64,000 nt of DNA from Tubulanus polymorphus (lineage: Eukaryota; Animalia; Nemertea): contig NC_134033.1 in NCBI RefSeq assembly GCF_964204645.1, positions 9,122,655 to 9,186,654 of the forward strand. Reading direction: 5' to 3'. The notes under the pieces were generated by a model. It worked only from the letters and a program-made list of their open reading frames with translations, did not search any database and had not been told where the DNA came from. Below, piece after piece: positions 10,981-62,947 of this stretch. Numbering within the stretch: the first letter of the stretch is position 1; each line of letters begins with the position of its first letter. Both the position numbers and the translations under genes were made by a program.

Positions 10981-10983
10981 ATT

Positions 10984-20548: not shown

Positions 20549-20556
20549 ATCCTTAG

Positions 20557-21891
<1,335 letters not shown>

Positions 21892-38100: not shown

Positions 38101-41100
38101 TATCCCTGTCTAATTTATGTTTCTGGTCTGTTTATTCTCAGCAATACATGAAGTTGAGTAAGGAAAAAATTATGGCTAATAAAGACTTGAATGAAGAAAG
38201 TTACCAAAAATATTGCGCTGATTTGACGAAGGTAGTAATAAAAAAGATTTTACCAAACTGGAGTAACTTCGATGTTTACATTGGTAAGTATCAACATCTA
38301 TTCTAAGATCTAGAACCCCCGGCCTTCCTTTCAATTATTCATTGTGGCCAGCTCATAGGTATGGAACTCGATTCCCCAACCATCAAAGTAAATTAGCTAG
38401 TGTCTAGTCTAGTGTATAACTGAAGGGTAACTGACACATTTGACCAGTGGCCATGAAGTTCAAATGCTGATAAGATGATAAATAGATGTGGTTTTACATA
38501 GAAATCAAGATTTTTATTGTCAGACATTTTAACTCATAAGTACTAAAGCCGCCTGGCCTATTACTTTTTAAGCTGTCTGACACCGCCCTGACACTTTTTA
38601 GCCTATTTGGGACTTAAATCCCAGTGGGCTTGTGTTCACTTTTTGTCTATCCGTCTGGAGACCACCCTCCCTCGGCAGAGATTCGAATCGCTGAGGTAAA
38701 TTTTATGGAAGAACTATGAATGGGAAAACCCGAGCTAAAATGAAACAGGATATCTCATTGGCTGATGATGACATTATCTAAGTTGCGCGTGTAGCTGTGA
38801 ACTGGGTCTAGTGTGGTAGGGTTTCGTATCGTAGCAATTTCGATGCCATCAGGTTTGAAACCCTGCCGGGGAGGGTGTCGGAATGCAGTTATTTTGGGAT
38901 GTTTTGAAGGCGTATCTATGGATTGTCTTCATATTTGGTTTATACATCCGGCTTATCTACCCAACTATTCATCTTCAACCCAAAATTGGCCTGATCAGAA
39001 TCATAGTGGCCGACTGATAGCCAAAATTAGCACTTTTTATATATTTTTGAAGTTTTGGATGGAAATTTTTAAGACTCTTAGATCAATTATCTTGGTCTTT
39101 TACAATATTTGTATGAGATAAATCATAAGAAAAATTGGTGTCGATCAGCCTCAAGATGACCGTCCTGTGACCTATTTTGTGGCCAAAAATGTTGATTTTG
39201 GCCTGAATTCTGGGGCCTGTTGCTTCCTAATGGTTTGCTAATTTTCATTGATATTTGATGGGCATTTTATGAAAACAGATCTTTAATACATCAGACAGGT
39301 ATTTTCGATCAGCCAATTATCACTCAATTGGCGTCCATCATGGCATGAATTCCAAAGATCCCTGAAACGGGGTGAAATCTGGGAATTCCTAAAATCTTTA
39401 GCTGATATGTTTTACAATCATCGTTTTTGCATAAATGAATTATTATGGTCGAAGACCATATAGGCATCGCAGCTAGTAAAAATCCTGCCGTTCACTGAAC
39501 AACATCTGTAGTATCTCTACTGCCATGGATATAGTCCCATAATGCTGTACCGATATAGAACAGATAATCCCATAAAAGACTGTCTGTAACGCGTCGTTTG
39601 CCTATATCCATGATCCTAGATATGACTATTATAGCCTGTTTTATTTAGGTTCCCAAAGTTGTGATGCATTACGGAAAGTTTTGAGGCGCATAAAGGGCTT
39701 ACCTGTCAGTGAATTGTTAAGATCGGTTTTACCCGATAATGAAATGTAATCCCCATCACTTTCCTCACACGTGCTCGCGCACTGATCCATTCCAAAGTAG
39801 TTCATAGAAACTGCGCAGTTCATGGTTCACACTGACTGGAAGAGGATTGGTTGATTATTGTCTCTGCAGGGCGGGTTCGTCGCTAGCCCGGATTTTATTG
39901 AAAGCACTACAAGTCTGGGATATATCTACGCAAACTGCGCCATTCCAAGATGCTGTACTCGCAGGGAGTTAGTAGTAGTAGGCTATAAAGCAATGCTGTA
40001 TACACACAGCGAGACAAGTGGCCGCGTCCCGCAAGGCAGACAGGCCGACTCAGATTGGCTGACGAAAAGTAACTTGTTCGGCGCGTGCCGTAGTAGAAAA
40101 AAAAAGATGTATATGAGAAACGTAGGGTTTCCGTGAGCTCGTTCAAAATGTCCGTTATTGGGGAAACAATTGTTCAAGTGTGCATCGTTGCAAATACGAA
40201 CACATCAGGTGTAAAGTCCAAGGGGAAGTGATGGGGATTTTTGGAGCCATTTCAATTTCATTCTAATGTTATCATGTACTCTTTGCCGTAATTAAAACTA
40301 CTACGGTTCGCACGAACTTCATTCAAACACTGCCTATACACAGTTTCATTGGCTAACTGTTTTTTCTATAGCAAACTTTATTCTTGTCAACTTACCTTAC
40401 TATATAAACCCATGTAATTTTGTTAATGTTGTTCAGTTAAAATATAGACTTCAGCTTGACATCCAACTCTTCGCTCTCACTTCTTTGCCGTTAGTTGGTT
40501 TGGCCAACAACTCTGAAGATGGGATTTAGGTACAGTTAGGTTAATTCTTATATTAAAGAATTGTTCGTTAACCTTCTTTCTTACTCGGCAGGTCAAGGAT
40601 ATGAAATGACTAAATGTACATATGTATTGTGCGATTATCGCGAAGACGGAGTCACCCCATATTTCATTGTGTTCAAGGATCAAGTAGTCGAAACAAAGCA
40701 TGTAAGTTGAAGCTTAAATGAAGTTATATTTCCAAAGGAAGAGCCACGATTACACAAAGACAATTTGACCTTGCCCAGTTGGGCCAAATAGGCATGGATC
40801 AGGCCGGGTCAAATATGGCTTGGTATATGGGTTAGTTAACTATTGAATGAGATCATGATTAGCATTTTGACTAAGCGCGACTTGGTCTTAACCCTTACAA
40901 TACCACTACCGTATAGCATGCGGTACAAATTGACAATTGTATGTGATATGGTATCACTTAACCCTTCTTCTAGAAGGGCATATCTATCAGTATCAGCCGG
41001 TGCTGCCATCTGCATAAAATCCAAGTTGGCAACAGCCAGGAAAAAACAATTAGGCTGGATGAAACGGTTCAGCAGCTCGTATGTGATGCTGACAGATATG

Positions 41101-44100
41101 CTGGTGACTTGGAATTTGGTAGTGACAACGAATATGACAGCAGCAGTTCAGATGATGAGACTTAGTCAGAAAATAGGTTTATAGTGCCGGCTATGATTAT
41201 GATGATGAAAATGAAATCAGTGACAATTTTTTTAGACCCTGTTGATACAGTTGTCATGACAACGGACACCAATAACAAAAATGAAGAACCAGAAACTCTC
41301 CATCCTCAAGGTCACATATATCCAAATAATTTGTCTTATTTGTAAGCCCAATGGTTATCAACACCATGGTATACAATGTATCAGTGTCAAATACATAGGT
41401 AACAATTTTCTGAGGCCTGAAATTATACCCCAATGAAACCCCTTACATCCGGCCTTCCGACATATCATGGTAAATGAGTGGAAAAATAAATTTTTTAGTT
41501 CTATTGCTTTGAAATTTTTACTACATAAAGTAAGGATATATGGCATACAATTTCAGGTGGAATTGAATAGATCAGTGCATTTTGCTGAGAGACAGAGCAG
41601 TTTATCTGAAACTTTATCGTGAATTTTTTTCATGGCGGCCATCTTGGAGTACGTGACCTTGACCTCAAGTTGACTTATATCCAAATTATTTATGTCTACA
41701 TTGTTGGCCACAAAGTTATCAACAACATGCTATATAAATTTTCTGTGTCAGATACCTTGGTAACTATTCTATGAAGATTTAAATATACCCCTATAAACCC
41801 CTAAATTCCCTCCGGTACAGCAGTGGAGACACTATGTGGTATTGAAAGGGTTAAACTAAACCTATATACTAGTAAAAATGTTATATTTTTGGTTAACACT
41901 GAACCTGAATTAACCTGCCCCTATTATGTCATCATCTGCAGCACCATCTACATTGGTATCAGATGAACTACGCAATGTGAAAATGCCTTCAAATTGAACA
42001 TTTGCAATCGTTAATATTTCAGTAATCCATCGCTAATTAGTTAATTTTAGGCTACACATGATCTTTAAGACAATTAATAGGAAAAAGCCTGTCAAGCATG
42101 AATTTCTTAGCTCCGCTGTGACCAAAGGTCAGCAAAGCTGATGGGTTAGGGATGAGTCGTCATCTTCTGTCCGTCAATTTCCATTTTAAATTACTACTAG
42201 TCCTAAGTTAAATTGGGTCATTACCAAAATTGGAATTCCATGGGTGCATTTAAATATGTTCCATGACATCCCTCACTTGCAACACGCTTCATTTTGGTTT
42301 ACCTTTGTCAGCAGTATGAAGTTGGCATTGAGCCAATTCATGCAAAATCGCGGTACGTTTTTTTATGTGAGCACTTTTTTTATTGGTTCTCGGGTGAAAC
42401 GACGTATAATCGATGCGATTGAAGACATGGCAAACCTCCATCGATGAAAAACTGTTTTTGGCAGGAAAATTCTTTCCTCTTGCGTATAAAATTACAATGA
42501 CCTCGATTGGGGGCATCGTCTCTACGAGCAATATGATTGGCTGTTTTTGGGATATACGGGGAATTCTGGCGTTACTAAAATAATTATAGGAAAGCCATGA
42601 ATAGCGAACGTTTCATCATTGGACTAGGTGCCGTAGGCTATATCCGAATATTAAATGCTCATTGCTGGTGAGAATACGATTATTTCACATATTGCCATAG
42701 GTATTGTTTCATTTTAAATACGCGGTGATTGTGTTGATTGAGATAGGAGTGAAGCGAATGTTCACTACACAAGGCCTCCACGTGCGAAGGAGTGCTAAAC
42801 ACACAAACATACGCTCATACATATGGAAGACCTCAGACGACATACGAGATATGAGATATAACATACGAGATATGAGATGCAACATACGAGATACGACATA
42901 TGACATACGAGATACGACTTATTTACAGTACGGGTGTCCGTCCGCTAGCGCCACCGCAGTGTATATATTTCACGTGCGCAGGCAGTGGCGTATACATTAA
43001 CTATGAATCTCAATATGCGAAAAACGTTTCATTTGAAAATAAAAATATTTAAAAATATTCGATCAACCACTCCCGGGGACCGGTTTCTCGCTGTGACGTC
43101 AGTGGGCCACTCTTAGTGTGAGACACCGATGGTCCGGTGATTCGAGTTGGCTCCAAATACGGGGCTAACAGCCCCTAAATCCACCAAAAAACGCCTCAAA
43201 TTCCATTTTTGAGTGTACAAAAATCCCTCAAAAAGAGTTTGCCATGGCCCTTCAAATTGGTGGTCATTAAGAATTGCGCCTAGTCAAGGGTTTAAACTTC
43301 GCGTTCGATCGAGGGTTTTCGATGAAGAATGAAAGATGTATGTATATTACGAATGCCGATGACCAAAGAGTCTTAAAAAAGTCCGACACACGCGGAATCT
43401 GTTTAGTGTACCGGTACTATGATTTCAACAAATGAATTGAAACATGGACATGAATTAAAAATACTAAAGATATCATAAATTTATTGAATGAATTATTCAT
43501 TAAATATCAGAATGGAGTTCCATTGTATCACTCTCAGCTCCTGGCCCTAGTCCAGCTGATTTCGTTTATCACGACGTTTTTTGCGACGGGTGCAAACACA
43601 CCATATGAGCAACATTCCGGTGTTCCGCTAATTCCCTGTCTAAAGAAATGTTACTTGATATTTCCATGGATCTCTTATCTTTACAAATGTAAGAGCTGTT
43701 GTGTTTTGCTGAAGACTTATTTATGTGGTTCCTGTACTTTTGTCAATAAACAGTTTTAAAACTGGCCATGATAATTGATAAGAATGATCTTAAATTGGAT
43801 TCTCCGATTATGAAAGTTATTCAGATTCAGCCATTGGCCCTTTTCATGAAAGATGTCAGAAAAGAAAGATAGCCAAAAAGCCCTCAGAATACACAAGTAC
43901 CTAAATTGAACAAATTTTCAGGGGAGGACCCCAAACTATGGCTTCAGAAAGACAGTGCCGCATACTGCCCTGACAGTTAGCGAAAACTGGCCAGTCTCGA
44001 CTCTCAACGGCTGGTCTAGTGGACTCACCAGTCTTCCCCGGTAGCCCGATAGGGATGGAATTTAGCTGGGGATTTCAAACCTTGAGAGAGAGCACGGGAG

Positions 44101-46678
44101 TTCTTAATCTGGATACCAGGGCGATGTACGGGTTCCCGGGTTGTTTGGGATTCAAGAACTCAGGCAGGGGTGTCAAACAGCGGAGGAGGGGTACAAGGGG
44201 GCGGGATTTCCGGCTGCGGGTTTTTTTTTTAGAATTTTGATTTCTGATGCAGAAAAGCCGGCGGTTACAGCGGGCGGTGAACAGTAGTTATTTTTTCTGC
44301 AGGCATCGAGTAACCGGAACCCCGGCTCCTGAACACCAGGCCGTTTTCAGACCAAAGGAAGACAAGAAATAGCATAATATTATGAACTTGAACAGTTTGA
44401 TATCTTTTTTGACGCCTTATAAAACGTTACCATTATGAAACCTAAACAATGTTAACCATTCAGCGTCATTTTACAAACGACAGCCGTAAATCGATGTGCA
44501 AAACGTCACAGGTCTATGTGTACACAAACAAGCTATCTGGCAAAATATTATTGACTTAGATGTAGAATGGCTTCCTGTGATTATATAATGACCTATATTT
44601 GACATGGAAATGTTATATTGCATTGAATATCATTAGAAGACGTATCGTAATAGTAAAGGATGTATGATTATATCAGAAGCGGCAGGCATAAATAGAAATG
44701 ATAAGTAAATCGGATTATTCGGTTAAATGGCGGATGTATACACGATGCGGAAGTCTGATATAAAAGTCAGACCCTGACGTGGGCATGCCGGTGGAATGAC
44801 GAAGCTATCTACGATGTGTGTAGGGCCGGCGTGAATTTCATCAGCGGCTACAAGCGGTTGATATGAAAATGTGTAAACATATAATTTCAATATTCAAACG
44901 TTTTAGAAAATATGTTTGATATTAGGAGTATGCAGGTTTCGTGAGATTAGCAATTTATAATAGCATAGCTGTCATATACGGCTCCGCGTCCTCTGATGGC
45001 ATGTGTATTAGGTGACAATTCAATTCAATTCTTTATTGATCCTTATTACATTGAAATTCCAGGATAAAATTCCCAAATTCAATAAATACAAATTTTAAAA
45101 TAAATTAATACAACATACATGACACACGGGTAATTCATACAGAACAACATAAGCATGTTATTTTAAATGACAATGTCTACTTCAACCCACCCAGACTCAA
45201 GACTCTAGGATATCGAGTGACAGCCGAACCCGTGGCCCGAGGACTGGGCCGGCTGGCTAGGCCACACGATATGCTCGAAGTCATGATGAAGCAGACATCA
45301 GAAGAGCTCTTTCTACAACCATGGAGGCAATGAAGTTGCAGACCAGCTTAGAGGCATAAGTAAATGAAGTCGGTCGCAAGTTCGCGATCAATTATTGAGA
45401 ATTTTCAATAAAAAAATTACTAGTAGAGTCGAAGACCTTTATCATCTACCCAATCGCCAAATCTCATCATTCCCCAAATTTCTTAAAACTTCGATTTCAA
45501 ATTTGCAATTCCACATTAGCTTAGCCCAGAAATTCTACTTTTTTTTCGCAGGCGTCAAATAATTTTCTTGTTAGTTTTGTGATTCGAAAAACTTTTCGTT
45601 GCCCGCGGGAGAGGAACGGCCGGCGCGCCTAGTCCAGGGTGTTCACAGTATGGCCTAATATCGTTGTGTCCGGTCCAGGTGTCCATTATCCAAAGGAAAT
45701 CTATTTCTGGTTTGAATAAAATGTTGACTATGTTGGTTTTCATATAATTGACGGTGACTGTACGCGTCAACATGTTAAACGATTTATATGCAGTAAATAT
45801 TGAAAAAACATACACTGCGGTGGCGCTAGCGGAGGGACACCCGTACTGTAAATAAGTCGTATGTCATATGTCGTATCTCGTATGTTGCATCTCATATCTC
45901 GTATGTTATATCTCGTATGTCGTCTGAGGTCTTCCATACATACAGACTACTATATGGTGATGCTGTAACGCTGATTGGCGCGTGCGCATTTGGTCCGTGC
46001 GCAACAGGCTAAATAATCATCATAGCAGAAAATGAGTGCTATGTTTTTCTGTTAGATAGAATTGTAGTAATTCTAAGCAGCAAACTATAGGTATAGATCA
46101 ACTCTGAATATTGTAGTGGTGAATTCCAGGATTTAAAACGATCGAATACTACGCCCGGTGTTTTAGCTTCCGCGGCCATACATTGGAAGAGGTTTCGTTT
46201 CCAAGACTCAATATTCAGCCACCCTCTGATATGTCACATCATATGAATTTTATTTGAATATTTTTTCATATTGTGAAAAATAATTTTTTGAAAATATAAA
46301 ATAGTTTCCCTGCCGCGCCTACCTGTACCCTACGAAATTTTGGAGGTAGACCATAAACAAATGTTTATCTTTGGTCTTATTTGACTACAAAATAATTCTT
46401 TAAGAAAAATGAAATACAATATAGACTTCTAGAACTTTGAAGAATTAAAAGATTTTTCAAGCAATGCCCTTACTCCAAACAACCTCTAGCTTTCAAGGTA
46501 AACCACACTTTGCCCATGGGCAATTTATTTTAAACAAGTACTGACTTTATTAGTTATTGGTGGAAAGAGAAAAAATAGCCTACCCATCGAGCCATAGCTT
46601 TCATTAAGAGTCTAGAACCAGATATCTTAAAGCATAACTGATTCTAATGATATTCTACAATTTGTATCATTTCAGTGA
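29152..46678 (+). CDS. TPT1: Translationally controlled tumour protein, 177 aa; exons 29152-29179, 34781-34851, 35417-35596, 38142-38283, 40592-40701, and 46676-46678 (stop only)
   Basis: Spliced translation MIVFNDLLTGVEIFSDSF...YYEVEGK...IGANASAEG...DYKAYLKQYMK...DYREDGVTPYFIVFKD; all introns GT-AG with consistent phases. The last exon (ttcag|TGA, AATAAA near 47062) is less certain; without that splice the frame ends V-S-stop at 40710. Confidence 0.92.
29494..30720. mobile_element. MITE with GGTCATCCTTATTACCGAGATGAC TIRs and 8-9 bp TSD (G)GATAGTAT; hosts a nested MITE
   Basis: TIRs and TSD visible; Merlin/MULE-like termini (inference). Confidence 0.85.
29521..30308. mobile_element. P-element-like MITE, long TIRs starting CACAGGGG, 8-bp TSD GATGACAT
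   Basis: Near-perfect inverted arms of more than 200 bp; TSD at 29513-29520 and 30309-30316. Confidence 0.9.
30733..31074. mobile_element. Related P-like MITE, TSD TATAAGC
   Basis: CACAGGGG...CCCCTGTG termini; homologous to the element at 29521. Confidence 0.88.
31572..32826 (+). mobile_element. Helentron-associated non-autonomous element (HINE-like), copy 1; contains a 165-bp MITE at 32566-32730 (TSD ATATG)
   Basis: Homologous to 33453-34696; internal ~120-bp tandem repeats; ends CCCCTAGT. Confidence 0.7.
33453..34696 (+). mobile_element. HINE-like element, copy 2
   Basis: Subterminal inverted repeat GCCCACTTGGGA (33459) / TCCCAAGTGGGC (34665), GTCC-type microsatellite remnant, T-rich flanks. 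Confidence 0.75.
35664..36696. mobile_element. Non-autonomous DNA transposon with 16-bp TIR CAGTGCTTCATCTAGC, flanked by ACAGTC duplication
   Basis: Perfect TIRs visible; hAT-like termini. Confidence 0.85.
38595..39345 (+). mobile_element. HINE-like element, diverged partial copy 3
   Basis: TTTTTAGCCTATTTGGGAC start and patchy homology to copy 2. Confidence 0.6.
40892..41850. mobile_element. piggyBac-type non-autonomous element
   Basis: TTAA|CCCTTACAATACCAC ... GTGGTATTGAAAGGG|TTAA. Confidence 0.85.
42822..45938. mobile_element. DNA transposon with ~130-140 bp internally repetitive TIRs (TATGGAAGACCTCAGAC...), flanked by CATACA duplication
   Basis: Inverted arms at 42822-42964 and 45810-45938. 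Confidence 0.88.
44408..45559. mobile_element. 1.1-kb non-coding mobile element with TTTGACGCCT / AGGCGTCAAA termini, copy A
   Basis: Full-length homologue at 53295-54390. Confidence 0.88.
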
Positions 46679-48012: not shown

Positions 48013-51000
48013 ATGGGAGAGAGTGAGTACCAGACAGAAAACAATGATGTTAATAAAAATCAATATTATTGCCAATATTGTAAAAAATACATCGATAAAT
48101 CTAATAAATCTAAACATGAAAAATCTTCAAATCATATAAAAAATGTTATAGATTTTGAAACCCCAGAAAATTCCAATGAAAGAAAAGAACGATTAGAAAA
48201 TATGAATGTGGATGTGGATGAAATAAAATTTGAAGTTTGTAATGAATTTATAGTAAAAAGGAATTATAATAGACATCTCGAATCACAAAAACACCATCAA
48301 AATTTGAGTAATAATGTTTTAGGAAAAGATTATTTTGATGATAAACCTCAAAAAGTAAAAAAACCAACTTCAAAAACTAAATCCATTTCAAATAAACCTT
48401 ACATGGAAAATGTTAGAAATTATATTGATTCACTAGAAATAAAAGATACAATTGAAATATTAGAAACATTACGTAGTAAAATTGGTCCTGCAGCTATTAT
48501 ATTTAGATTTTTTAAAGGTACAACAATAGAAGATTATAGTAAATTTAATGAAAAAATAGAAAAAATACTAGATTTGATAACAGATGATGAATATCCAAAA
48601 ATTAGTATCTCTGGGAAAGTACGTTTTTTAAAGTCAGAAGAGAAAATGGATTATAATATTCAAACACTCTTTGAAGAAATAATTTCAAAAACGCAATAAA
48701 ATAGAAGTTAGAAAAAATATTTAATGAATTTAAACGTCATATTGAAGAAAGATATTTTGAGGGTTCTGGCTTAACATTGAATGAAATTATATATTTAGAT
48801 TTAAATGTTTATAATACAAAAAGAAATAAAACATCAAAAAGTAATAAAATGTTTAAAAATGATTCAAACTTTACAACAGAAAAGGATATTAAAGCATCAT
48901 CTTATATTAAATTACCATTTACAACAAAAGCAGTAATAAATGTTAAAAATGAAGATAATAAATGTTTTCTATGGTCAGTTATTAGTTGTTTACACCCAAC
49001 AGAAGATATGACGCATAGTTTTAGAATAACAAATTACCGGAAATATGAAACATTATGTAAAATTGATCAATATCCAGTAACTATAAAAATGATTCCTAAA
49101 ATAGAAAAAGTTAATAATTTAAAAATAAATGTATTCGAATTAATGCAATTACCAAAGACAAAAGGTGAAAATGTTAAAGAAGCTTTATATTTAACAGAAT
49201 ATTATGATGATGAAAATGCTATAGATTTGTTATATTACAAAAAAAGATGAAAATGAACATTATATGTGGTTAAAACAAATTGATTTATTCTTTAGAACAG
49301 AAAGTGATCATCATCGTAAAATTTATCTATGTAGAAAATGTTTATCTAAATTTATGACTGAGAATACATTATTAAAACATAAAAAATTATGTGATAATAA
49401 AGATTTTTGTAAATTAATAATGCCAACAGAAAAAGATTATAAATTGAAATTTACTAATCATAAATTTAAGAATATTGTTCCATTTGTAATTTATGGGGAT
49501 TTTGAATCGTTGAATAAAGAATTAACTGATCAAGATAGAAAAGAAATATATAACAAAAAGCAATTATTAAAATCAATGGATAAAGGAAATGAATTAAATG
49601 AAGACACAATACAAGACCCACCAATTATAAATACAATTAAAAAAGTTCATCAAAGAGCTGCTGCTTATGGAATTTACATCAAATCAAATTATCCCGAATT
49701 ATATGAAAGTCAAGATATTTCTTTTAGAGGTGAAAATGTAGTTAATGATTTTTGTGATAAAATGATTGAATTAGAAAGTGATTTTGCAAAATTATTAAAC
49801 AAAAATAAAAGAATAGTTATGACAAAAGAAGATGAAATTGATTTTAATTATGCAACTCATTGTTGTTATTGTGAAAAAAGTTTTTATTCATTTAATAAAA
49901 AAAGTTAGAGATCATGATCATTTAAATTCAAAATATCGTGGAGCTGCTCATGAAGATTGCAATTTACAAGCTAAGAAAGTTAATTTCGTACTAATATTAT
50001 TTCATAATTTATCAGGCTATGATACCCATTTATTTGTAAAACAATTATCAGGAAAATTAGGTGCAATTAATCAAGAAATAGAAGAATATAATGCTATGAA
50101 TGGTGTAAATGTAAGAAAATATGATTTTAAACTATTAGCTAAAACATCTGAAAATTATATTTCATTTCAGTTTGGTTGCATTAGATTTTTAGATTCTTAT
50201 AGATTTCTAGCAAGTTCATTAGATAATTTATCAAAAAGTTTAGTTGATAATGATTTTGTTATAACTCGATATTATTATCCAAATGACCAAGATTTTAAAT
50301 TATTGAGATATAAAGGCGCAATTCCTTATTCATTTTATAAAACACACAATGATTTTAATGTAACAGAATTATTAAAAGATCAATTTTATGATTAATTAAA
50401 AGAGGAGTATGTGAAAGATGAAGTGTTTAATAGAACATTAAATATTTGGAACCATTTTAAGATGAAAAATCATGGTGAATTAGTTGATTTATATTTAAAA
50501 TCAGATGTTATGATATTAGCTGACATATTTGAAAAATTTAGAGAAGTTAATTTGAATCATTTTAATGTTGATCCTTGTTATTGCTACTCTAGTCCTGGTT
50601 TAACCTGGCAATGTGGTTTAAAATATACAAATGTAGAATTAGATTTATTAAAAGAACCAGATATGGTTTTATTATTTGAAAAATCAATTAGAGGTGGAAT
50701 TAGTGGTGTTATGGGAGATAGATATTTTAAAGCAAATGATGAATATAAATTATTATATATTGACGCCAATAATTTATATGGTTGGGCAATGATGCAACCT
50801 CAACCATACAAAAATTTCATATTAACAGAAGTTGAAAATGATGACAAAACTGATTGGGAAAGCGCAATTGCGAGTTTAGAAGATGAAGCACCAATTGGTT
50901 ATTTCTTTGTAGTTGATTTAGAATATCCTGAAAATATAAAGTTTAAAATATAAAAATATAAACTTACCTTATTGCCCAGAACATTTAACCGTAGATGATA

Positions 51001-53009
51001 GTTATTTAAGTGAATACCAGAAAAAAATAAAACCGAAAGATCATGTTTTTACAGAAAAATTAATACTCAAAATAATAAATACAATTATATTGTTCATTAT
51101 AGAATGTTAAAATTTTATCTGAAACAAGGAATGGAATTAAAGAAAGTACATAGATATATTGAATTTAATCAATCGAAGTGGTTAGAAAAATATATAGATT
51201 TCAATACTCAACAGAGAACCATATCTAAAACAGATTTTGAAAAAGATTTCTTCAAATTAATGATTAATAGTTTTTATGGTAAAACATGTTAAAATATTAG
51301 AAATAGAAATGATATTGAATTAGTAAATAATTCTGAAAGATTAAGACATTTACAATCAAGTCCTAGACATTTAGGAAATAAAAGATTTGAAGATTATTTA
51401 ACAGCAGTTAAATTAAAAAGAACATCAATGAAATTTAATAAACCTAAATTCATTGGTTCAACTGTTTTAGAAGTATCAAAATTATTAATGTATGATTTTT
51501 ATTATAATGTTTTACAACCACTTTTTGGGGAAAAACATATAGAAATCTTATATTTTGATTCTGTAACAGCTGACACCCCAATATTATTAAAATGTAATAA
51601 TGAAATATTAATTAGAAGAATTTCAGAAATAATTCCAAAACAAAATGAATTATATTTCGTATGATGAAAAAGAATTAATACAAATAAATGAATTGATAGA
51701 TGTTTGGACAAGAAATGGATGGAAAAAATTAAAGAATATTATTAGGCATAAAACAAATAAGAAAATCTATAGAGTTAGAACTAAATTAGGGTTTTTAGAT
51801 GTTACAGAAGATCATAGTTTAATTAAACGAAATGGCGATGAAATAAAACCAACTGATATAAAAATTGGAGACGAATTATTACATAAAAGATTTTTCCAAA
51901 GAATGAATCATATGTCATTTGATGAAATAATTGATAATATTTATAACATAGAACCCGAAACATTAGAAGAAAAAGAATATTTTATCAAAGGATTTTTCAT
52001 GGGAGATGGTTCAGCAGGTGTGTATAAATATGTTTGGGGTAATAAATATTGTTGGTATTTATGCAATCAAGATTTGATATTATTAGAAAGAATAAAGAAA
52101 TATTGTGAAGAAGTTTATCCAAATAAAACATTTCAAATCATGGATGTTATGGAATCATCAGCAGTTTATAGAATACTTGTAAATAATCGAAAAGATTTTG
52201 CTATAAAATATAATGATGAATTCTATATTCATGCAATAGTGAAAAGTAATACTTCAACAAAAGAAAAGATAGTTCCAGATTATGTATTAAATGCAAAAAA
52301 TTATTTAAGAAAATGGTTCTTCATTGGATTCTATGCAGCAGATGGTGCTAAAAAATTTACAAAGGATAAAAAGATAACCTTTGCACAGAAAGGAAAAGTT
52401 GCTATATCAGGGTTAAATATATTATGTAATTCATTAGGCTTCAATATGAATATTGGATTGATTAAATCTAAACAAATTGCTTTAATCTAAGCCACACAGA
52501 AAAAGATCAACTGAAGATGGTACATTTAACAGTGGATTTCCATTAATTTGCTTCAATACTGACAGTTACATACTAAAAATCAAGACAAATGACATAACAA
52601 AAGACTTAAAAACATTAAAACATCATTTTGATTTTAGCAATTATCCCAAAGATCATGAACTATTTAGCAATGATAATAAAAAGATTCCTGGTAAGTTTAA
52701 AGATGAATTAGGGGGTGATGAAATGATTGAATTTGTTGGGATAAGAAGTAAAATGTATAGTTATAGAACAAAAGACCATGAAGCTAAAAAATTAAAAGGA
52801 ATAACAAAACATGTGGTTGATAAACATATAGAATTTCAAGATTATATAAAGTGTTTATATAACTCAATTGTAATGAAACACAAAATGAATTGTTTAAGAT
52901 CAGAAGATCACGAGATGTACATGAAGTTGAAAAAACTAGTTTGAATCCATTTGATGATAAAAGGCATATTTTAGATGATGGTATAAAAACATTACCTTAT
53001 GGTCATTAA
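48013..53009 (+). pseudogene. Protein-primed PolB (N-terminal ZnF, vOTU-like domain, EndoVII-like insert, exonuclease, polymerase) with intein; many frameshifts and stops
   Basis: DNKCFLWSV...HYMW, YGDFES, VRDHDHLNSKYRGAAHEDCNL, FHNLSGYD, FLDSYRF, YLKSDV, IRGGISG, YIDANNLYG, KLMINSFYGK, YFD//TDS. Confidence 0.93.
51560..52557 (+). mobile_element. Intein with LAGLIDADG homing endonuclease in PolB motif C (degenerate)
   Basis: Block A SVTADTPILL, block B VTEDHSLI, block C GFFMGDGS, block D KIVPDYVLN, block E GFYAADGA, C-terminus TEDGTFNSGFPLICFN followed by +1 Thr; absent from the element 1 allele. Confidence 0.93.
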
Positions 53010-55314
53010 AACATAAAATCAATATCATCATACTCGAAATCACTATTGGCTTCTTCATTTTCATTTAATTGTTTAGGTTCTTCTTCCATTTCATTTTTCT
53101 CATTTAAATAAAGTTCTATCTTGTTCCACATTTCATCTCGCTCTCTTTGTTTCTTTTTGTTTGTTAATTCATCAAATGGAATTATAATATCTATGTTTAA
53201 ATAATTTACAATCTTATTTAAAAAGAATTCATAATTTATTGAATCTGTTATTCTATTTTCCAAATGATACATTAATATTTGTTTGAATATTTTTTTTGAC
53301 GCCTTATAAAACGTTACCATTATGAAACTTAAACAATGTTAACCATTCAGCGTCATTTTACAAACGACAACCGTAAATCGATGTGCAAAACGTCACAGGT
53401 TTATGTGTACACATACAAGCTATTTGGCAAAATATTATTGATAAAGATGTAGAATGGCTCCCTGTGATTATATAATGACCTCTATTTGAACGTCGAAATG
53501 TTATATTGCATTGAATATCATGATAAGAGGTATTGTAATAGTAAAGGATGTATGATTATATCAGGAGCGGCAGGCATAAATAGAAATGATAAGTAAATCG
53601 GATTATTCGGTTAAATGGCGGATGTATACACGATTTGGAAGTCTGATATAAAAGTCAGACCCTGACATGGGGATGCTAGTGGAATGACGAAGCTATCTAC
53701 GATCTGAGTAGGGCCGGCGTGAATTTCATCGGCGGCTACAAGCGGTCTATATAAAAATGTGTAAACAAATAATTTCAATATTCAAATGTTTTAGAAAATA
53801 TGTTCGATATTAGGGGTATGCAGGTTTCATGAGATTAGCAATCTATAATAGCATAGCTGTCATATACGTCTCCGCGTCCACTGATGGCATGTGTATAAGG
53901 TGACAATTCAATTCAATACTTTATTGATCCTTATTACATTGAAATTCTGGGATGAAATTCCCAAATTCAATAAAGTTACAAATTTTAGAATAAGAAAATA
54001 CAAAATACAAGATACATGGGTAATTCATACAGAATAACATGAATAAGTTATTTAAATGACGATGTCAACCCAGACTCAAGTCTAGGATATCGAGTGACAG
54101 CCAAACCGGGACCGGGCCGGCTGGCTACACGATATGCTCGAAGTCATGATGAAGCAGACATCAGAAGAGCTCTTTCTTCAACCATGGAGGCAATGAAGTT
54201 GCAGACCAGCTTAGAGCAAAAGTGAATCGAAGTCGGTCACAAGTTGACAATTTTTTTTAAATTAGACCAGTCGAAGACTGTATCATCGCCAAATCTCATA
54301 ATTCCCCAAATTTCTTAAAACTTCGATTTCAAATTTGCAATTCCACATTAGCTTATCCCAGAAATTCTACATTTTTTCGCAGGCGTCAAATAATTTATTA
54401 AAGTTAATTTTCTTGTTTATATTTTTCATATCTTCTTCTGTTAATTTAGGTTTTTCATAATAATCGTTAAATAATAAATATAAATACATTTTCTTTTATT
54501 TTGTGTTAAATGTTGACGGAATAATTGTTTTTATAATATCTTTTTTAGTTATTTCACCATTTTTATTTTCTATTATTTTCATTTTTTCAAGCCATTGCAT
54601 ATATTATAACACAGTACCTTCTTGCCTTAAGGTCGCGTAACTACATTGTGGACATTTTCGTTTATAATTTATTGGTAATAGATCTTCATTAAGCTCTTGG
54701 TATTTTCTTACGTTTTCTTTATGTTTTATTGTTCTATTATGTAGATTTGAATTACTTGTTGTAATAATCAATTTACAATATTTACAATAATATGTTTTTC
54801 TTGTTAATTCATTATATTGTTTTTCTAACTTTTCAACTGTTTCTTTATTATCTGGTAACGTTTTCTCATATTTTATTTTTTCTAATAAATTATTTTTTCT
54901 TTCATTGAATTCAGTTTCAAATTTATTAGAAATTTTATCTATATGTGGTTTACGAAATTGATGATTCTCCCAATCTTCTATATTTTCAGGGCTATATTTT
55001 ATTCGACAAGGCTCACAGAAATGATCTTTTATATTATCCTTATCATAGAATAAGAAAGGTCTTTTCCAAATAATTTCAGGTTCAACTTCAACAGAATTAC
55101 TATTAATTTCGTTACTATCAACATTAATCGTTGAGTCATTAATTTTACACTTCTCTGAATGTTTTTTAACATAATTTCTTGAGAATAATTTATTACATTT
55201 TGGGCAGTTTAGTTTAGGGGGTTTATAATTTTCTTCATGTTTTTTCATATGTCGAGCCATATTACTTTTTCTTAGAAGTTCACCACAAATTTCGCATGCT
55301 ATCTTCTCATCCAT
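53006..55314 (-). pseudogene. Multi-C2H2 zinc-finger viral gene split by a transposon
   Basis: CEIC..HMKKH, CPKC, CEPC and CKYC fingers in 54604-55314; coding-like sequence continues through 54391-54600 and resumes below 53295. Confidence 0.7.
53295..54390. mobile_element. 1.1-kb mobile element copy B inserted in Polinton 2
   Basis: Colinear with 44408-45559, same termini, more GC-rich than the viral flanks. Confidence 0.9.
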
Positions 55315-55382
55315 TTATTAAGGAAAAATTTTATTAAAATTAATTTTTAGTGATGAGCGGTAATTTTTTTATATTATAAATA

Positions 55383-56159
55383 ATGGTAGAATTAAAAGAA
55401 TACAGAATATTTGTTGATTCTAGAAAACTTACAAATTATAAATCACATAATTTACTAGTACAATTAGATAGAGAATTTAAGAATTGTGTTGATTTAAAAT
55501 TAGTTAATATAAGTTTATGTAATTCTTTTTATAATGTATCAGATAAAACTGATGAACGTAGAACCTTTTTTATTTATGATGAAATTAAACTTGAATGGAC
55601 TCAACTTATGCTTACACCAGGATTATATAATTTAGAAACATTAGCGCAAGAAATTAATAGAAAAGCTCGAGCTAAATTAGGAAGTGATTCTAAATCTATT
55701 ATTAAATTCATAAAAAGTGAGAGCTCTAATAAAATTAAAATAAAGTTTAATAATGAAAAACCTATTGGTATTGTTTTACCTGCTTACTATGTAAAAAAAC
55801 CTTTTACTAAACTGTTAGGAATTCCTCCAGATAAAAGTATTGTTGAAAACATATACGGTATATCAAATTTAATACCTTTTACGCATTTTTATATTTATTG
55901 CAATTTGATTGACCCAACAAAAACATTTGAAGCAACTAAAGATACAATTTGTAATTCTAGCATATTAAATATTTTACCATTAAAAAATGTTAAACAATTT
56001 GGAACGCAAATAAATTATAATTTAGCTGAATGTGATTTTAAACCTTGTATTCCACATTTCAATAATTTTAAATTAGAAATAAGAAATCATAATGGATATT
56101 TAATTGATTTGAATAACTTTCCTGTGATATATGAATTAGTTATAAGATGTAGAGAGTAA
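55383..56159 (+). CDS. Minor capsid (penton-like) protein
   Basis: Homologue of 1628-2386. Confidence 0.75.
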   Translation: MVELKEYRIFVDSRKLTNYKSHNLLVQLDREFKNCVDLKLVNISLCNSFYNVSDKTDERRTFFIYDEIKLEWTQLMLTPGLYNLETLAQEINRKARAKLGSDSKSIIKFIKSESSNKIKIKFNNEKPIGIVLPAYYVKKPFTKLLGIPPDKSIVENIYGISNLIPFTHFYIYCNLIDPTKTFEATKDTICNSSILNILPLKNVKQFGTQINYNLAECDFKPCIPHFNNFKLEIRNHNGYLIDLNNFPVIYELVIRCRE

Positions 56160-56175
56160 TTTTTTCATTATATAA

Positions 56176-56745
56176 ATGAATATAACTGTTGGACCGAGTA
56201 TATGTTTTGGATTTGATTTTAAACGTGAGAAAGAAATGAAATTTAACATCAATGATGTAATTACACAAATCAAAAATATTGCATTTTCTAATGAAACAAC
56301 ATTTAAGTATGAAAAAACAATAGATAAAGAAACTTTTAATGTAGAAAAGATTACTAATTTAATTAGAGAATCTTTAAGATTTTATGAATTAGATGAAGAT
56401 TTTATCATCGATGATATTAGAAAAATAATAATTGCAATATATACAAATGAAACTAGTAATGAAATAAATGTTGAATTAATCGTAAATAAGTTAACTAAAT
56501 ATTTTGATGATAAATATTTTGATATGAGTGATAATAAGTGGATAATAACTGGATTATATAATGGAGCATTACTATCAGTTGGAACTGTTGGTTATTCAAT
56601 GGTATTAAAAAAAGTATTCAAAATGGGAAGTGTTAATGTTGATAGATTTGATATAAATGATATCTTAAAATTAACATTAGCAGTTACTTTATCTAATTTA
56701 ACTATTGATTATTTGGAAAAACAAAAATATATTCCTACCATATAA
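56176..56745 (+). CDS. Fusion of the homologues of 2404-2745 and 2746-2967
   Basis: Internal MSDNKWIITG is in frame; the stop and TAAATG are absent. Confidence 0.75.
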   Translation: MNITVGPSICFGFDFKREKEMKFNINDVITQIKNIAFSNETTFKYEKTIDKETFNVEKITNLIRESLRFYELDEDFIIDDIRKIIIAIYTNETSNEINVELIVNKLTKYFDDKYFDMSDNKWIITGLYNGALLSVGTVGYSMVLKKVFKMGSVNVDRFDINDILKLTLAVTLSNLTIDYLEKQKYIPTI

Positions 56746-56769
56746 ATGCGTAATTATTTTACTAAATAA

Positions 56770-57192
56770 ATGGCTTCTGCAATTATAACTATTATAGGAT
56801 CGGCAATTGTTAACGCTTTAGCATTTACTGGTGGTGGATATTTATTTAAGCATATTGATAAAAATAGTTCATTAGGAGAACAAAGAAGACATAACTTAGC
56901 ATTAGAGAAATACAATAAAGCAGCAGAAGAATATAGAGAAAAGAGGCAAAACTATATGGATTATATTAATAAGGAATTATATGATCAGAAGATTTCACAT
57001 AGAGATTTTCAATCAGTTGATGATGCAATGAATTTATATAATGCGGTAACCAAGAAAGTAAAATTACATCTATACAAACCTAAATTATCAGATTATTATA
57101 CCCCAAGTAAAGAACAACAGAAATATGAAATAATTTGGATTTTAGGTGGAACAGTTATTGTTATATTTGTAGCATATAAATTTACTAATTAG
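56770..57192 (+). CDS. Predicted membrane protein
   Basis: Near-identical to 2992-3414. Confidence 0.8.
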   Translation: MASAIITIIGSAIVNALAFTGGGYLFKHIDKNSSLGEQRRHNLALEKYNKAAEEYREKRQNYMDYINKELYDQKISHRDFQSVDDAMNLYNAVTKKVKLHLYKPKLSDYYTPSKEQQKYEIIWILGGTVIVIFVAYKFTN

Positions 57193-57211
57193 TAATTTTT
57201 TTTCTAAATAA

Positions 57212-57646
57212 ATGGATGATAAAGTTGATAATATTGATATTATTCCTCATGATATAAATAAAACTAAATTAAAAATATATTTAGAAAAACAAATATTAGA
57301 ATTTGAAAGTGACTTAAAGATAAAAAAGAAAAAATATTTAAAAAGTAAAATTATATATTATTTGATTATAAGTGGTTCGGTTACAATTAGTTCTGTAATA
57401 ACATTTCTAGCAATATTCAGTCCATTAACACCATTAGCTATATCAATTGGTGTATTAGGATTAAGTTCAAGTGTATTAACTGGTATAAGTTCAAAATTAA
57501 ATATAAAAAGTAATAAAGAAAAAATTAAAACTAATATAAAAGAAATTAATAAATTAAAGAATACACTAGATTATATAATAAGTTTAAATGGTCATATAAC
57601 AGTTGAAGAACAAGATAAATTATTAAAAGAATTAATAAATTATTAG
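57212..57646 (+). CDS. Two-TM membrane protein, intact
   Basis: Hydrophobic hairpin flanked by basic coiled segments. Confidence 0.8.
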   Translation: MDDKVDNIDIIPHDINKTKLKIYLEKQILEFESDLKIKKKKYLKSKIIYYLIISGSVTISSVITFLAIFSPLTPLAISIGVLGLSSSVLTGISSKLNIKSNKEKIKTNIKEINKLKNTLDYIISLNGHITVEEQDKLLKELINY

Positions 57647-57662
57647 TATTTTTATTATATAA

Positions 57663-59051
57663 ATGGTAGATTGTTTTCCAAAAGCTTTCCAATATAATAA
57701 ATCAATTAAATATGATATTCCAGCAATAGATTTTAATAAAGATATTACATATAGAAATGAAGTTTTAGATTCATTAACTAATTTAGAAATTTATGTTACT
57801 GAAACTAATAATTTTAATGCAAAGATGGAAAATATATTTCATGTATATTTAATTAATTTTAAAAAATTGAAAGATGAAAAACAATGGTTATTAAAATCTA
57901 ATATGAAGTATTGGCAGAACCAATTAAATTTTGCTGTTTATTGTGCAACAACAGGTTGTGGAATTAGTTGGAATGATCATTTGAATAATTCTAAATATAA
58001 ATTAATTCAAAGTTTATTTAGATTTCATACATACTTTCAAATCAGAATAACATTAAATGAATTAGAGTGCGCTTTACCAGGATCTAGGTATTTTAAAGAA
58101 TTAGATAATAATATTAATTTATCAAAGTTTTATAAAATTTGTAATGAATTTAATATAGATATAAATAATTCTGATTTTAGAACAAAAATTGGAACAATAA
58201 GATCACTTCCTCTGCCTAAAAAGATTGCAGAATATTGTGCACTTCCCATACCATCTAATAGTTTTTATAATATCTATAGTAATAAATTAAGTTATGGTAA
58301 AATAGAAACAAAGGATTTAGAAACATCAAATTTCAATAAATTACCGACATTTTATGATAATTTAAAACAAGAAAACAATAATGGTTGGGTTTATTTCATT
58401 TTAGAAAATAATGAAGGTTTTACAAAATCAGGTATACAAAGAATAAATCAATCTATTAGAACTTATTTGATATGTATTTTATGTGCGCAAGTTGAAACAA
58501 GATCCCCAATAATTGGAAATTTAAATACATCATTTGATACGCAGAAACAATTTAAAGTATTATTTGAAGATTCCATTCATAATGATAAAAATAGATCGAT
58601 TCCAGAAAACATTGTACGATATCAAAATTATTTAGATAAATCACATATTAGATTAAATTATTGTATAGGCCCTAATCTATTAATTATTTCTAATGATTTA
58701 GTATTAAAGATGGGAAACATAATTGGTTATAATAATCTAATCAAAACTGCAACAATAAATAATTCATTTGGGTTAAATGATATAAATAAAAAGATTATCA
58801 CTGCTCCAAAATTAATGGAAGGTGAAAAAAATAAAATGCACATTCAATCAACAGAAACTAAAACTAAGAATATTAAATTGGATAATGATTCCAGAATAAA
58901 AGATTACAATACTACAGAAAATATTAAAACTGATAATATTCAACATGATATAATTAAAACTGATAATGATAATAAATTACATGAAAATACTAAATTAGCT
59001 TTAACTTGTATAGGAATTGTTATAGGAGGAATATTATATTTTAAATTTTAA
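57663..59051 (+). CDS. Conserved 462-aa viral protein with C-terminal TM, intact
   Basis: YWQNQLNFAVYCATTGCGIS; homologue of 3885-5267. Confidence 0.8.
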   Translation: MVDCFPKAFQYNKSIKYDIPAIDFNKDITYRNEVLDSLTNLEIYVTETNNFNAKMENIFHVYLINFKKLKDEKQWLLKSNMKYWQNQLNFAVYCATTGCGISWNDHLNNSKYKLIQSLFRFHTYFQIRITLNELECALPGSRYFKELDNNINLSKFYKICNEFNIDINNSDFRTKIGTIRSLPLPKKIAEYCALPIPSNSFYNIYSNKLSYGKIETKDLETSNFNKLPTFYDNLKQENNNGWVYFILENNEGFTKSGIQRINQSIRTYLICILCAQVETRSPIIGNLNTSFDTQKQFKVLFEDSIHNDKNRSIPENIVRYQNYLDKSHIRLNYCIGPNLLIISNDLVLKMGNIIGYNNLIKTATINNSFGLNDINKKIITAPKLMEGEKNKMHIQSTETKTKNIKLDNDSRIKDYNTTENIKTDNIQHDIIKTDNDNKLHENTKLALTCIGIVIGGILYFKF

Positions 59052-59067
59052 TTTTTTTTTTATATAA

Positions 59068-60530
59068 ATGGATGTAGAAGGTGGAGAAGATATTGGAATG
59101 GATCCTTTTGATGAACCTGGTATAACTGATGAACAACAACCTGATTTTAGTGAAACAAGTTTTAATGATGGTAATGAGCCAGAATATAATAATAATAATT
59201 TAAATATGCCTGATTATATTAAAAATGCAGAATCACAATTAAATCCTGAAAATTTAGACCCAGATTTAGTAAAACAAGATTTAGATAATTTAAACAAAAT
59301 ACCTAAATTAGAAGATTTAATTGAAAAATCTAAACTTAACATAAATGATGAAGACGTTGGACTTTTAGCAGATCAATTAAAATTTTTAGATAATGGTAAA
59401 TGTTATCGTTTGAAAGGTGATTATTATATTGATATCACTTATAAAAATGATAAAAATAAAATATTAGCAGAATCAACTTTAAAAAAATTAGAACCAGAAA
59501 AAATTAAAATAATAAGTAATAGTAATGAAATAACTGATGTTACGCAAAAAGAAATAGATGATAATATAGACGTATTTAAACAAAGAATTAATAAATTATT
59601 TGAAATAATCAAAAAGAAATCAAAAACAGAAACAACTTCTGAACAGAATATAACTTCCAAAACTAGTAAACTTAAATCAAATAAAGTTCTAATTGAAAAA
59701 TTTTTACCGAATGGATTACTTGATGCAACAGATCAACAATTAGAAGATTTAAATATATTTTCTGATGAAGCAATTAGAGAAATATTAGTATAAGAAATGA
59801 AGCTGATAAAATTGCACATAATAAAAGTATAAGAGATCAAAAAATTATGTATTTGGAAAAAGAATTTAACTAATGCAAATAAAGAAATAGAACAAATAAA
59901 GTCTGATTTAGATCATCAAGTAATTGATGAAATAGAATATAGGCAAAAAGAATTACGTTTAGAAAAAGAAATTAATAATTTAAAAGATAATTTAGCAGTA
60001 CAGAAAGAAGAAATTAAATTATTATTAAAATCATATGATTATAATATTAATAGATTAAAAGTTATTTTTAAAGATTTGTTGATAAAACCAAATTCTGAAA
60101 TATCATTAAAAGATAGAATAAAGTTATTATTTAAATTAGAAGGAATAACAATTCTTTCAATTCTAACAGCTGTAACTATGTTATTTACAACAATTGGTTT
60201 AGCTATATCAAATTCTTTGAAATCTACTCCTACTCCCAATAAACCGGATAAACCCCCGAATGATAATAATTCTATACAAGATAAAGTTAAGGATGGTTTA
60301 AAGAAATAAGCAAAATATTTATGGGAACTATCTAAAAAATCTGCTGCAGCATTACCAGGAATTATTGCATCAATTGTTGGTTTTATATTGAAATCTGCTG
60401 GGAATATTCTTAACTTTGCTGCTGAACATATTATTTTATTTTTAATTACAGTTGTAAGTGCTATTATTTTTGGGTTAGTGAATATGATATCAAAAAGATA
60501 TCAAGAAAAAATAATAAAAAATAAATAATT
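59068..60530 (+). pseudogene. Acidic / coiled-coil / multi-TM protein, disrupted
   Basis: Homologous to 5284-6876; frameshifts near 59790-59870 and TAA at 60307. Confidence 0.8.
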
Positions 60531-60548
60531 AATTTTTTTGTTAAATAA

Positions 60549-61796
60549 ATGAGTGGGAGTTATATAAGTCCTTCTAAGATATCTAGAATATCTAATGCTA
60601 TTAAAGCAGGAAGATCGCATCATATAGTTACTCATAACCCTTCTAATATTAATCCCGATGAAACTTTATATGTTAGAATTCCTAGATTAACACAAAATAC
60701 TTTTTATGTTCCAAATAGTATTTATTTATCAGCTGATATAAAAGTAATTGGTCATGATAATAATTATGTTGTTGATAATGTTGGGAGATATTTGATTAAA
60801 AAATTAACTATAAAGATTGGTCCAGAAACAGTTTTCTCATTAGATGATTATAATTTATTTATGCATTATAAAGATTTATGGTTAACTAAAGAAAATAGAA
60901 ATAATATGATATTTCAGGGTATTCAATCGGAAAACCATAATAAATTAAGATCTGAAGCCAATAATGCAGTAGCAACTAATGCTGTAGATAATTTGATAAA
61001 AAAGATTTATGGAAGCAAATATAAAATTCCATTAGACTTTGAATTGATAAATAATAATGCACCTTTATATAAATATGTTATTCAAGAAGATATTATATTT
61101 GAGATAACATTTGCGCCTGTAAATGAAATTGTATTATCTAGCGTTGTTAAAGATATGGGTTATAAATTATCAAATATATGTTTAGAATATGACACAGTAA
61201 CTAATGAAAATATTGCTAGCACAATTCAAACTCAATACAATCAAGGATTTTCATTATTATATGATTATATTGATAAATTTAAAACTGTAACTATTAATGC
61301 AAATGATGAAATAATTAATGAGAATATTAACTTCCCAAGAAGATCTATTAAAGGTATATTAATATTTTTTACCATTGCAACATATTCTAATGGTGCAATA
61401 AAGGTAGATAATTATTATAATCCTGAAATAACAAAAGTAGAAATAACTATCGAAGGAATAGCAAATAAAATATTTTGTCAAGGAATGAGAATGATAGATC
61501 AATGGCCAGAAATTAGAAAACATTTTATGAATGAAAAAGTAAAATCATTTGAAAATTGTAATATTAATCAAATTGATTATTATACCGGCAATAAATATGC
61601 ATTATGGTTAGATTTTAGAACAACAGAGGATAATTCATTACATGGTTCTGGGAAAAAACTACAGAACACTAAAGATGGAATATAATTATTTATGAAAAAG
61701 AAAAAAGGAAGCTTAAATTTTAAAATGCACATTTATATTATATCTGACGCACAATTAAATATTGTAAATTCACAATTAGATAGTATTCAATATTAG
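60549..61796 (+). pseudogene. Major capsid protein, nonsense codon at 61683-61685
   Basis: Colinear with 6920-8167, which has CAA at that codon. Confidence 0.8.
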
Positions 61797-61826
61797 AAAT
61801 ATAAAGTTAAAATTAAGGATATATAA

Positions 61827-62947
61827 ATGGGTGGTAAAAAAAACTCCTAATACTAAGGAACAATATTTAAGAAATTTATATTACAACCCTGAGAGTTCGG
61901 TTGCTTATTCTTCTACCAAAAATATATGGCGTCAAGTAAAACAAGATAAATTAGATAAGATAATCCCACAAAATTTAGTTAAATATAAAGATATAAATGA
62001 ATTTATGTTAGGACAACCAACATACACAACACATAAAAAAATTGTTAGAAAATATAAAACTCGTAAAACTATGGTAAGTTGTGTAGATCAACAGTGGCAA
62101 GGAGATTTAATTGATATGAAAAATGTTAAGAAAGATAATGATGATTATTGGTGGTTATTGAATATAATTGATATTATTAGTCGTTATGTATGGAGCTTCC
62201 CACTTTATAGAAAAGATACTGTACAAACATCAAATGTTTTAAGAAAATTTCTTTCGGATGATAAACTAAAACCAGAAAAAATACAATGGAAAAGAGTTTG
62301 ATAATTCACTTGTTCATGAACTCTTAGAAAATCATAATATTAAATATTTTTCAACAAAATCGGATAAAAAAGCGGCAGTTGTTGAACGATTTAACAGAAC
62401 ATTAAGAACAAGAATGTGGAAATATTTTACAGCAAATAATACTTTTAAATGGATTGATGTTTTACCAAAATTGATAGAAGGATATAACAATTCTTATCAT
62501 TCTCCTATTGGAATAAAACCTATTGATGCTAGAAAACCTGAAAATGCTGAAATTGTTTGGAATAATTTATATGGAGCATTTCTTGTAGATGATTTTGGTG
62601 AACCTAAATTAAAAGTTGGTCAAAATGTTTGAATTTCTAAGTATAAAAAGATATTTGACAAAGGATACGATCGAAATTTTACTAGGGAAATATATAAAAT
62701 AAAAAAGGTAATAACAACAAAACCATATGTCTATAGATTAGAAGATTTAAATGGTGAAGAAGTTGATGGGTATTTTTATGAAGAAGAATTGAGTTTAACT
62801 ACTGAAAATCTAGAACAAGAATATAAAATTGAAAAAGTATTAAAAACAAAAACTGTTAAAAGAAAAAAATATTCTTTAGTAAAATGGGTTGGATGGCCAG
62901 ATAAATTTAATGAATGGATATTATCAAGTAAAATTAAAAATATATAA
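61827..62947 (+). pseudogene. rve integrase with chromodomain, disrupted
   Basis: WQGDLID, IDIISRYVW, VERFNRTL, LVKWVGWPDKFNEWI; frameshifts and TGA at 62630. Confidence 0.9.

Follow-up and report, generated by a model that had tools for sequence, protein, structure and literature searches.

Two Polinton copies and a split polymerase

The window, by which we mean the whole stretch of DNA analysed at its full length of 64,000 nucleotides, holds two decayed Polinton copies, here called A and B, and in it the Polinton gene set is represented by matches to PF03175 (the protein-primed PolB, or pPolB), rve and Pox_A32, together with a weak match for the capsid. In the polymerase of copy B a 998-nt insert splits motif C (YFD|TDS), and the polymerase of copy A aligns with it by blastn up to 51559, picks up again past the insert and reads YFDTDS. 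The main features are listed below in order of position.

2..1240, + strand: C-terminal half of the copy A pPolB with an empty site, YFD/TDS, the insertion point lying between 709 and 710 (blastn; 78% DNA identity to the copy B exteins)
38142..46678, + strand: host TCTP-like gene with GT-AG introns, exons 38142-38282 and 40591-40701 and the last from 46676 (Pfam TCTP, E 0.009 and 2.4e-5)
48013..51559, + strand: N-extein of the copy B pPolB with zinc fingers, EndoVII-like motif, exonuclease, motifs A and B and YFD, bearing frameshifts and stops (PF03175; tblastn of P0021)
51560..52557, + strand: pol-c-site intein with Hint and two-motif LAGLIDADG endonuclease, broken in copy B (sequence, Pfam, blastn, reads, comparison with P0021)
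51560..51655, + strand: N-terminal piece of the intein, block A with Ser1 (SVTADTP), 59% identical to residues 1-32 of the P0021 intein
51666..52472, + strand: main frame of the intein with TEDH at ~51804, GFFMGDG at 51990 and GFYAADG at 52326, 63% identical to residues 38-304 of the P0021 intein (also Pfam)
52507..52557, + strand: C-terminal piece of the intein, which carries the signature FNSGFPL and ends in Asn (76% identity over residues 338-354 of the P0021 intein)
52558..53010, + strand: C-extein of the copy B pPolB, beginning TDS (Thr+1) (blastn against copy A; comparison with P0021)
55380..63556, + strand: rest of copy B, comprising virion-module ORFs and the three genes below (Pfam)
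60549-61685, + strand: probable major capsid protein of copy B (Capsid_N, weak, E 0.009)
61780-62947, + strand: rve integrase of copy B (rve, E 4e-5)
62948-63556, + strand: A32-type ATPase of copy B (Pox_A32, E 4e-12)

When 1-11750 is set against 50880-64000, the two copies prove to be mosaic, with virion-module genes 87-91% identical and PolB 78%, and the integrase/ATPase block, 77% identical, is inverted between them. Copy A apparently ends on the right in an imperfect hairpin of ~410 nt (14930-15339) whose arms are 84-91% complementary; on the left side of copy B a search of 47200-48100 recognised no terminal repeat, and its right end falls outside the window. Copy B has also received a secondary insertion of 1121 nt of high-copy repeat DNA (53295-54415), which 116 genomic reads of run X6 skip. 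Between the Polintons lie a decayed LTR retrotransposon of Gypsy type (16000-21900), in which an (AT)n run occupies 20674-20888, and a LINE, represented by its reverse transcriptase (24770-26170).

The host of the element

The TCTP-like gene ends ~1.3 kb upstream of copy B, and the LINE and Gypsy elements lie between the two Polintons. Over 790 nt of unique host DNA a contig of run X2 shows 3 differences from the window, and host DNA and the element are both present in reads from a different sample and study. Integration into a eukaryotic genome is well supported. Of 30 short host ORFs searched, 28 returned nothing that places the host taxon, nor did one weak TCTP match; from the intron-bearing gene, the LINE and the Gypsy element, taken with the statement in the available text of PMC8502044 that adintovirus-type virion genes appear restricted to animals, the host is likely an animal. 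The first-pass annotation of this DNA had placed the intein in an animal germline, of which the integrated state is well supported and the animal is our reading of the host context. Two further observations concern the TCTP-like gene, which is divergent: its last exon apparently consists of a stop codon and 3' UTR only, and a contig of run X1, which may be an RNA library, joins its last two exons, X1 also covering the intein; as contigs are unable to demonstrate expression, X1 carries no weight here.

An intein at the pol-c site

In copy B, YFD ends at 51559, SVTADTP runs from 51560, ICFN ends at 52557 and TDS follows from 52558; the insert thus has Ser first and Asn last with Thr+1 next, and inside it are TEDH (within VTEDH at about 51801-51815) and two LAGLIDADG motifs. 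The class 1 residues are all present except the start of block F. The unbroken 285-aa frame passes the Pfam cut-off for LAGLIDADG_3 (E 9.5e-5) and stays below that for Intein_splicing (E 8.9e-5), so the profile check proposed in the first-pass annotation succeeded for the endonuclease, whereas the splicing domain was recognised only in intact relatives: P0023 and P0002 pass the cut-offs of Intein_splicing and/or TIGR01445, the latter being above cut-off in P0002, P0023 and P0158, and LAGLIDADG_3 is above cut-off in intact relatives too. The insertion falls between YxD and TDS, equal to the Mimivirus intein site YGD|TDS in PolB as given in the available text of PMC549080, which makes it the pol-c allele. 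By these sequence features the insert is a class 1-type Ser/Asn/Thr+1 Hint-LAGLIDADG intein at the pol-c site, with predicted splicing and endonuclease activities, and the earlier claim of just such an insert, with all five of the motifs then read in it, is borne out by the sequence, by blastn against copy A and by reads that skip 998 nt.

A predicted model of P0002, a natural intact relative, was built from a 57-row alignment and reaches a pLDDT of 91.8; an earlier fold from 13 rows, with pLDDT 60, was discarded in its favour. The best PDB match of the model is PI-PkoII (Z 27.7, rmsd 4.7, 309 residues aligned), its endonuclease part matches I-DmoI (TMt about 0.74), and its best BFVD matches are the PolBs of a phycodnavirus, Pandoravirus and Megavirus. 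Similarly, the ESM Atlas led from P0043 to Nucleocytoviricota-type PolB clusters, and from P0021 to leads under 0.9 only.

The copy in the window is not a working one. Compared with the intein of the natural relative P0021, that of copy B changes frame near 51655-51666 and again near 52472-52475, and ~21 codons, including the start of block F, are gone near 52507, which confirms the frameshifts and the missing block F start reported from the letters alone. The intein itself is out of frame, and tblastn of P0021 finds extra frame changes in the polymerase and 6 stops within one aligned stretch; to judge by these frames copy B is dead and cannot work. At one of the breaks in the intein about half of the host reads differ in length from the window sequence, so that this break is not common to all copies. 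The first-pass annotation had also remarked on a penultimate Phe where His might be expected; the residue is real, but we reject it as a special feature, since among 82 motif-selected complete inteins of the lineage this position varies (K 32, H 30, Y 7, S 5, F 2, other 6).

Filled and empty alleles, and signs of homing

Copies with and without the intein exist side by side in the host species. In run X6, of which ~12% was analysed at 85% likeness, 69 genomic reads with 47 different starts join 51557 to 52556 and so skip 998 nt (2 letters fit either side of the joint). Reads cover the exteins ~380-410 deep and the intein 160-240 deep, against ~7 for unique host DNA, ratios that give roughly 50 copies of this Polinton family, about half to 60% of them filled. 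Of the 10 codons that follow the site, 8 show synonymous differences between copies A and B, against a background of 35% (p 0.005, a post hoc test on one pair).

Filled and empty alleles also occur together in two other families, P0158/P0161 and P0023, making three with the host family. The P0023 cluster has 136 members; of the 15 that were listed, 7 carry the intein, 6 are empty and 2 leave the site uncovered. When the 7 filled alleles are set against 5 near-complete empty ones over 1116 alignment columns, 10 columns tell the two groups apart, and every one of these falls in the stretch from 7 residues before the site to 44 after it, although the nominal p of 2e-11 for this clustering is too strong, columns and copies being non-independent. 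Four of the positions nearest the site match a sister intein-bearing family, as expected of a co-conversion tract. Also, empty members of this family (P0147, P0149-P0154) encode motif C as YFDTDA, YTDCDS or YGDTDA, which is possibly target-site escape from the endonuclease, and the flank tract may itself be a resistant patch gained by the empties rather than co-conversion in the filled copies. Either reading, co-conversion or escape, would need site-directed cutting and repair; ordinary recombination may also have left such a pattern. In P0158/P0161 the filled and empty exteins are 99.2% identical, and there are neither flank differences nor a tract. Taken over the alleles compared, the intein likely spreads from copy to copy by homing.

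A Polinton intein clade in two polymerase classes

Protein searches recovered unbroken pPolBs with the intein in P0021, P0022, P0023, P0026/P0158, P0027, P0259 and P0264, spread over at least 6 database clusters, including the P0023 cluster, with contigs of up to 1 Mb, and that of P0026/P0158, with 121 members. The intein is in frame in P0021, P0023, P0027, P0158, P0259 and P0264, and Ser1, TEDH, both LAGLIDADG motifs, VYD, Asn and Thr+1 are kept in all six Polinton inteins tabulated, with identities between Polinton intein lineages of 46-50%. A pPolB extein combined with intein motifs was found in 32 of 486 collected proteins, many of them fragments or cluster mates. The lineage is rare in pPolBs: the 132 new top representatives divide into 117 RNA-primed PolBs, 3 topoisomerases, 1 pPolB and 11 unassigned. 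A search of metagenome and viral contigs with the window frame and P0021 turned up no locus at the DNA level for any intact Polinton relative.

In ingroup trees the Polinton inteins form a single clade, with 99 SH-aLRT in a first, quick tree and 100/99 in trees with either 7 or 8 Polinton rows; the quick tree left out 6 near-duplicates as well as 12 motif hits whose length or start was atypical, L015 and L019 were omitted from another tree, and subsampling was used for the 8-row and the outgroup-rooted trees. The clade spans two kinds of polymerase, set apart here by motifs and BLASTP rather than against named Alpha or Beta adintovirus references. P0027 has FYGGRT, lacks RGGIS and the EndoVII motif, and carries what we take to be a VSR-like motif; against P0161 its extein reaches E 0.097 at best by BLASTP, short of significance, yet its intein shows 46-49% identity to the rest of the Polinton inteins, which points to passage of the intein between two very distant pPolB classes. 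A position of P0027 nested inside the other pPolB class was not favoured over a sister position (p-AU 0.37). Within the main class intein and extein identities are alike (66% and 67% in one case), so that long vertical inheritance fits too. With a clade, intact members, two pPolB classes and filled/empty polymorphism, the Polinton intein is not a one-off fossil.

The same lineage occurs at a D|TDG site in type II topoisomerases (P0028, P0106, P0107, P0109, P0125, P0128), whose inteins are nested among those of PolB, so the lineage has changed host protein before.

The possible source of the Polinton inteins

Among the matches listed, the closest relatives outside Polintons are, by sequence, inteins of giant-virus RNA-primed PolBs. 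The best 80 of 547 IMG/VR loci, together with 3 more, comprise 81 RNA-primed PolBs, no pPolB and 2 unassigned, and 7 of the top 8 are contigs of giant-virus MAGs (GVMAG). Furthermore, a C-terminal signature, FNxG(F/Y)xL, is found in all complete Polinton inteins and in one giant-virus clade that includes the PolB of Mimiviridae sp. ChoanoV1. The branch that unites Polintons with this signature clade has 99 SH-aLRT in the quick tree and 83/56 in the 7-row tree and is unresolved in the 8-row tree. When the trees are rooted with three phage-like PolB inteins, the root comes to lie among those of Polintons (99/96 under LG+G4 and 95 under a mixture model), and Polintons nested among giant-virus inteins are not rejected by the AU test (p-AU 0.25). 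Another AU test, with p 0.039, was set aside as confounded by the topoisomerase inteins nested among those of PolB.

The first-pass annotation had the intein cross from the RNA-primed PolB of a large DNA virus into a pPolB and had called for a tree with related PolB inteins. That tree gives the Polinton clade and its giant-virus relatives; the direction is another matter, given the rooting among Polintons and the nesting test just cited, and transfer from giant virus to Polinton is, on the sequences compared, a probable but by no means a secure reading.

A proposed homing cycle on dispersed Polinton copies

What we propose, with a good deal of confidence, is that this is a pol-c-site Hint-LAGLIDADG intein of Polinton pPolBs whose intact members are predicted to splice and likely home among the element's copies in what is likely an animal genome, the copy in the window being a broken one. 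Ser1, Thr and His of block B, Asp of block F, the terminal Asn and Thr+1 would carry out class 1 splicing that restores YxD-TDS, and a filled polymerase would then remain active. The endonuclease would cut the empty YxD/TDS coding site of sister copies, where repair from a filled copy would add the intein and a flanking tract, and the dozens of dispersed or replicating Polinton copies would offer the empty targets on which the intein persists. We know of no inteins in this type of host's own nuclear genes. The lineage would have entered Polintons once, probably from a giant-virus (Mimiviridae-like) RNA-primed PolB, and have crossed later between the two pPolB classes.

The same intein could have another origin, being old in Polintons or derived from a phage-type PolB, with the giant-virus signature clade as its sister or recipient. 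We think this rather unlikely, even if the outgroup-rooted trees place the root among Polinton inteins under both models and intein and extein identities track each other in the main pPolB class, because the outgroup branch is long (0.5-0.9, with one tip at 2.0) and attraction is likely, and the nested tree was not rejected. In addition, the outgroup and most giant-virus inteins end in a G(I/V)G-type C-terminus, so FNxGF arises once if Polintons nest with the signature clade and otherwise takes two changes, and the allele is far more diverse in RNA-primed PolBs, as the tally of new top representatives shows (117 to 1). It is less likely still that the intein splices, as predicted, and has lost homing, filled and empty copies being due to vertical descent, precise loss and ordinary recombination between Polinton families. 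The decay of the window copy, the mosaic structure of copies A and B, by which recombination is common anyway, and the clean flanks of P0158 and P0161 all speak for it. However, lineages that share only about half of their residues have retained both endonuclease motifs, the fixed differences between filled and empty P0023 alleles cluster only at the site, surviving empties have altered motif C codings, synonymous differences between A and B crowd the codons after the site (within the limits of that one post hoc comparison), and presence in two pPolB classes needs mobility.

We judge it very unlikely that the host of the element is some eukaryote other than an animal, or that a symbiont or free virus contributed the element when the contig was assembled. 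The element's relatives are known from metagenome assemblies, as one might expect in that case, but an intron-bearing TCTP-like gene, a LINE and a Gypsy element flank two decayed, integrated Polintons, host stretch and element recur in the independent material described above, and the animal range of adintovirus-type virion genes (PMC8502044, in its available text) points the same way. Returning to the homing cycle that we prefer, its fullest version, on which we are evenly divided, has one giant-virus invasion giving rise to a homing cycle that is now live on dispersed Polinton copies in animal genomes, that jumped between two major pPolB classes and that drove the motif C escape variants. 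If true, animal nuclear DNA would here be seen for the first time to house a functional intein lineage. With an intact and polymorphic lineage in Polintons whose hosts are likely animals, the long-standing question of why animals lack inteins becomes testable, as splicing and homing may work in animal cells given a multicopy carrier with empty sites. The Polinton intein also serves as a molecular tag of DNA contact, both of giant viruses with Polintons and between two polymerase classes; it supports the view that Polintons replicate and recombine as viruses, and it explains over-long pPolB annotations.

Comparison with known systems

The first reading of this DNA knew of no described intein in a Polinton pPolB, and our literature searches found none either, with the proviso that supplements, Repbase reports and subscription journals lay outside their scope and may hold an earlier mention. 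The word "intein" occurs 0 times in PMC10748475, PMC8502044, PMC11131425 and bioRxiv 2026.06.19.733378, and the available portions of PMC12220804, PMC5718144 and PMC3671162 contain no Polinton intein. Eukaryotic inteins have been surveyed, as far as the available text of the two sources goes, in fungi, algae, protists and large DNA viruses (PMC5784728, PMC10710043), with 14 in Iridoviridae (PMC5784728), and inteins of insect-infecting iridoviruses are thus already known, so that what is new here is that the host enzyme is protein-primed, that the carrier integrates and that the intein likely resides in animal nuclear DNA.

The nearest likeness is to the pol-c inteins of Mimivirus and archaeal PolB (PMC549080) and to the polymerase inteins of NCLDV (PMC5784728), which, in the available text of these papers, share the motif C site, Ser1/Asn/Thr+1 and the combination of Hint and LAGLIDADG; the Polinton inteins are 40-50% identical to giant-virus MAG PolB inteins. 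They differ in their host, an integrating pPolB (PF03175) where that of giant viruses is the RNA-primed PolB (PF00136) of a free virus, and in forming a clade of their own. Endogenised viral polymerases of algae and protists and the nuclear inteins of Anaeramoeba (PMC10710043) offer a parallel for a virus-derived intein in nuclear DNA with inferred intragenomic spread; those systems belong to algae and protists and their polymerases are not described, in the available text, as Polinton-type ("polinton", "animal" and "metazoa" have 0 occurrences in the main text), whereas here the carrier is a multicopy Polinton, likely of an animal. Nuclease domains within pPolB are themselves familiar from the HNH and VSR inserts of Polintons (PMC10748475), inserts of a type suggested to stem from intein invasions (PMC11071308, available text), but those are fused HNH or VSR domains with no Hint described in the available text, and what sits in the catalytic motif here is a complete intein, for which precise empty alleles exist. 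Finally, the element as a whole resembles the Polintons/Mavericks and adintoviruses in the available text of PMC8502044, integrated and multicopy with a pPolB, an rve integrase, an A32-type ATPase and a probable capsid gene, and is set apart from those adintoviruses by the intein in its pPolB.
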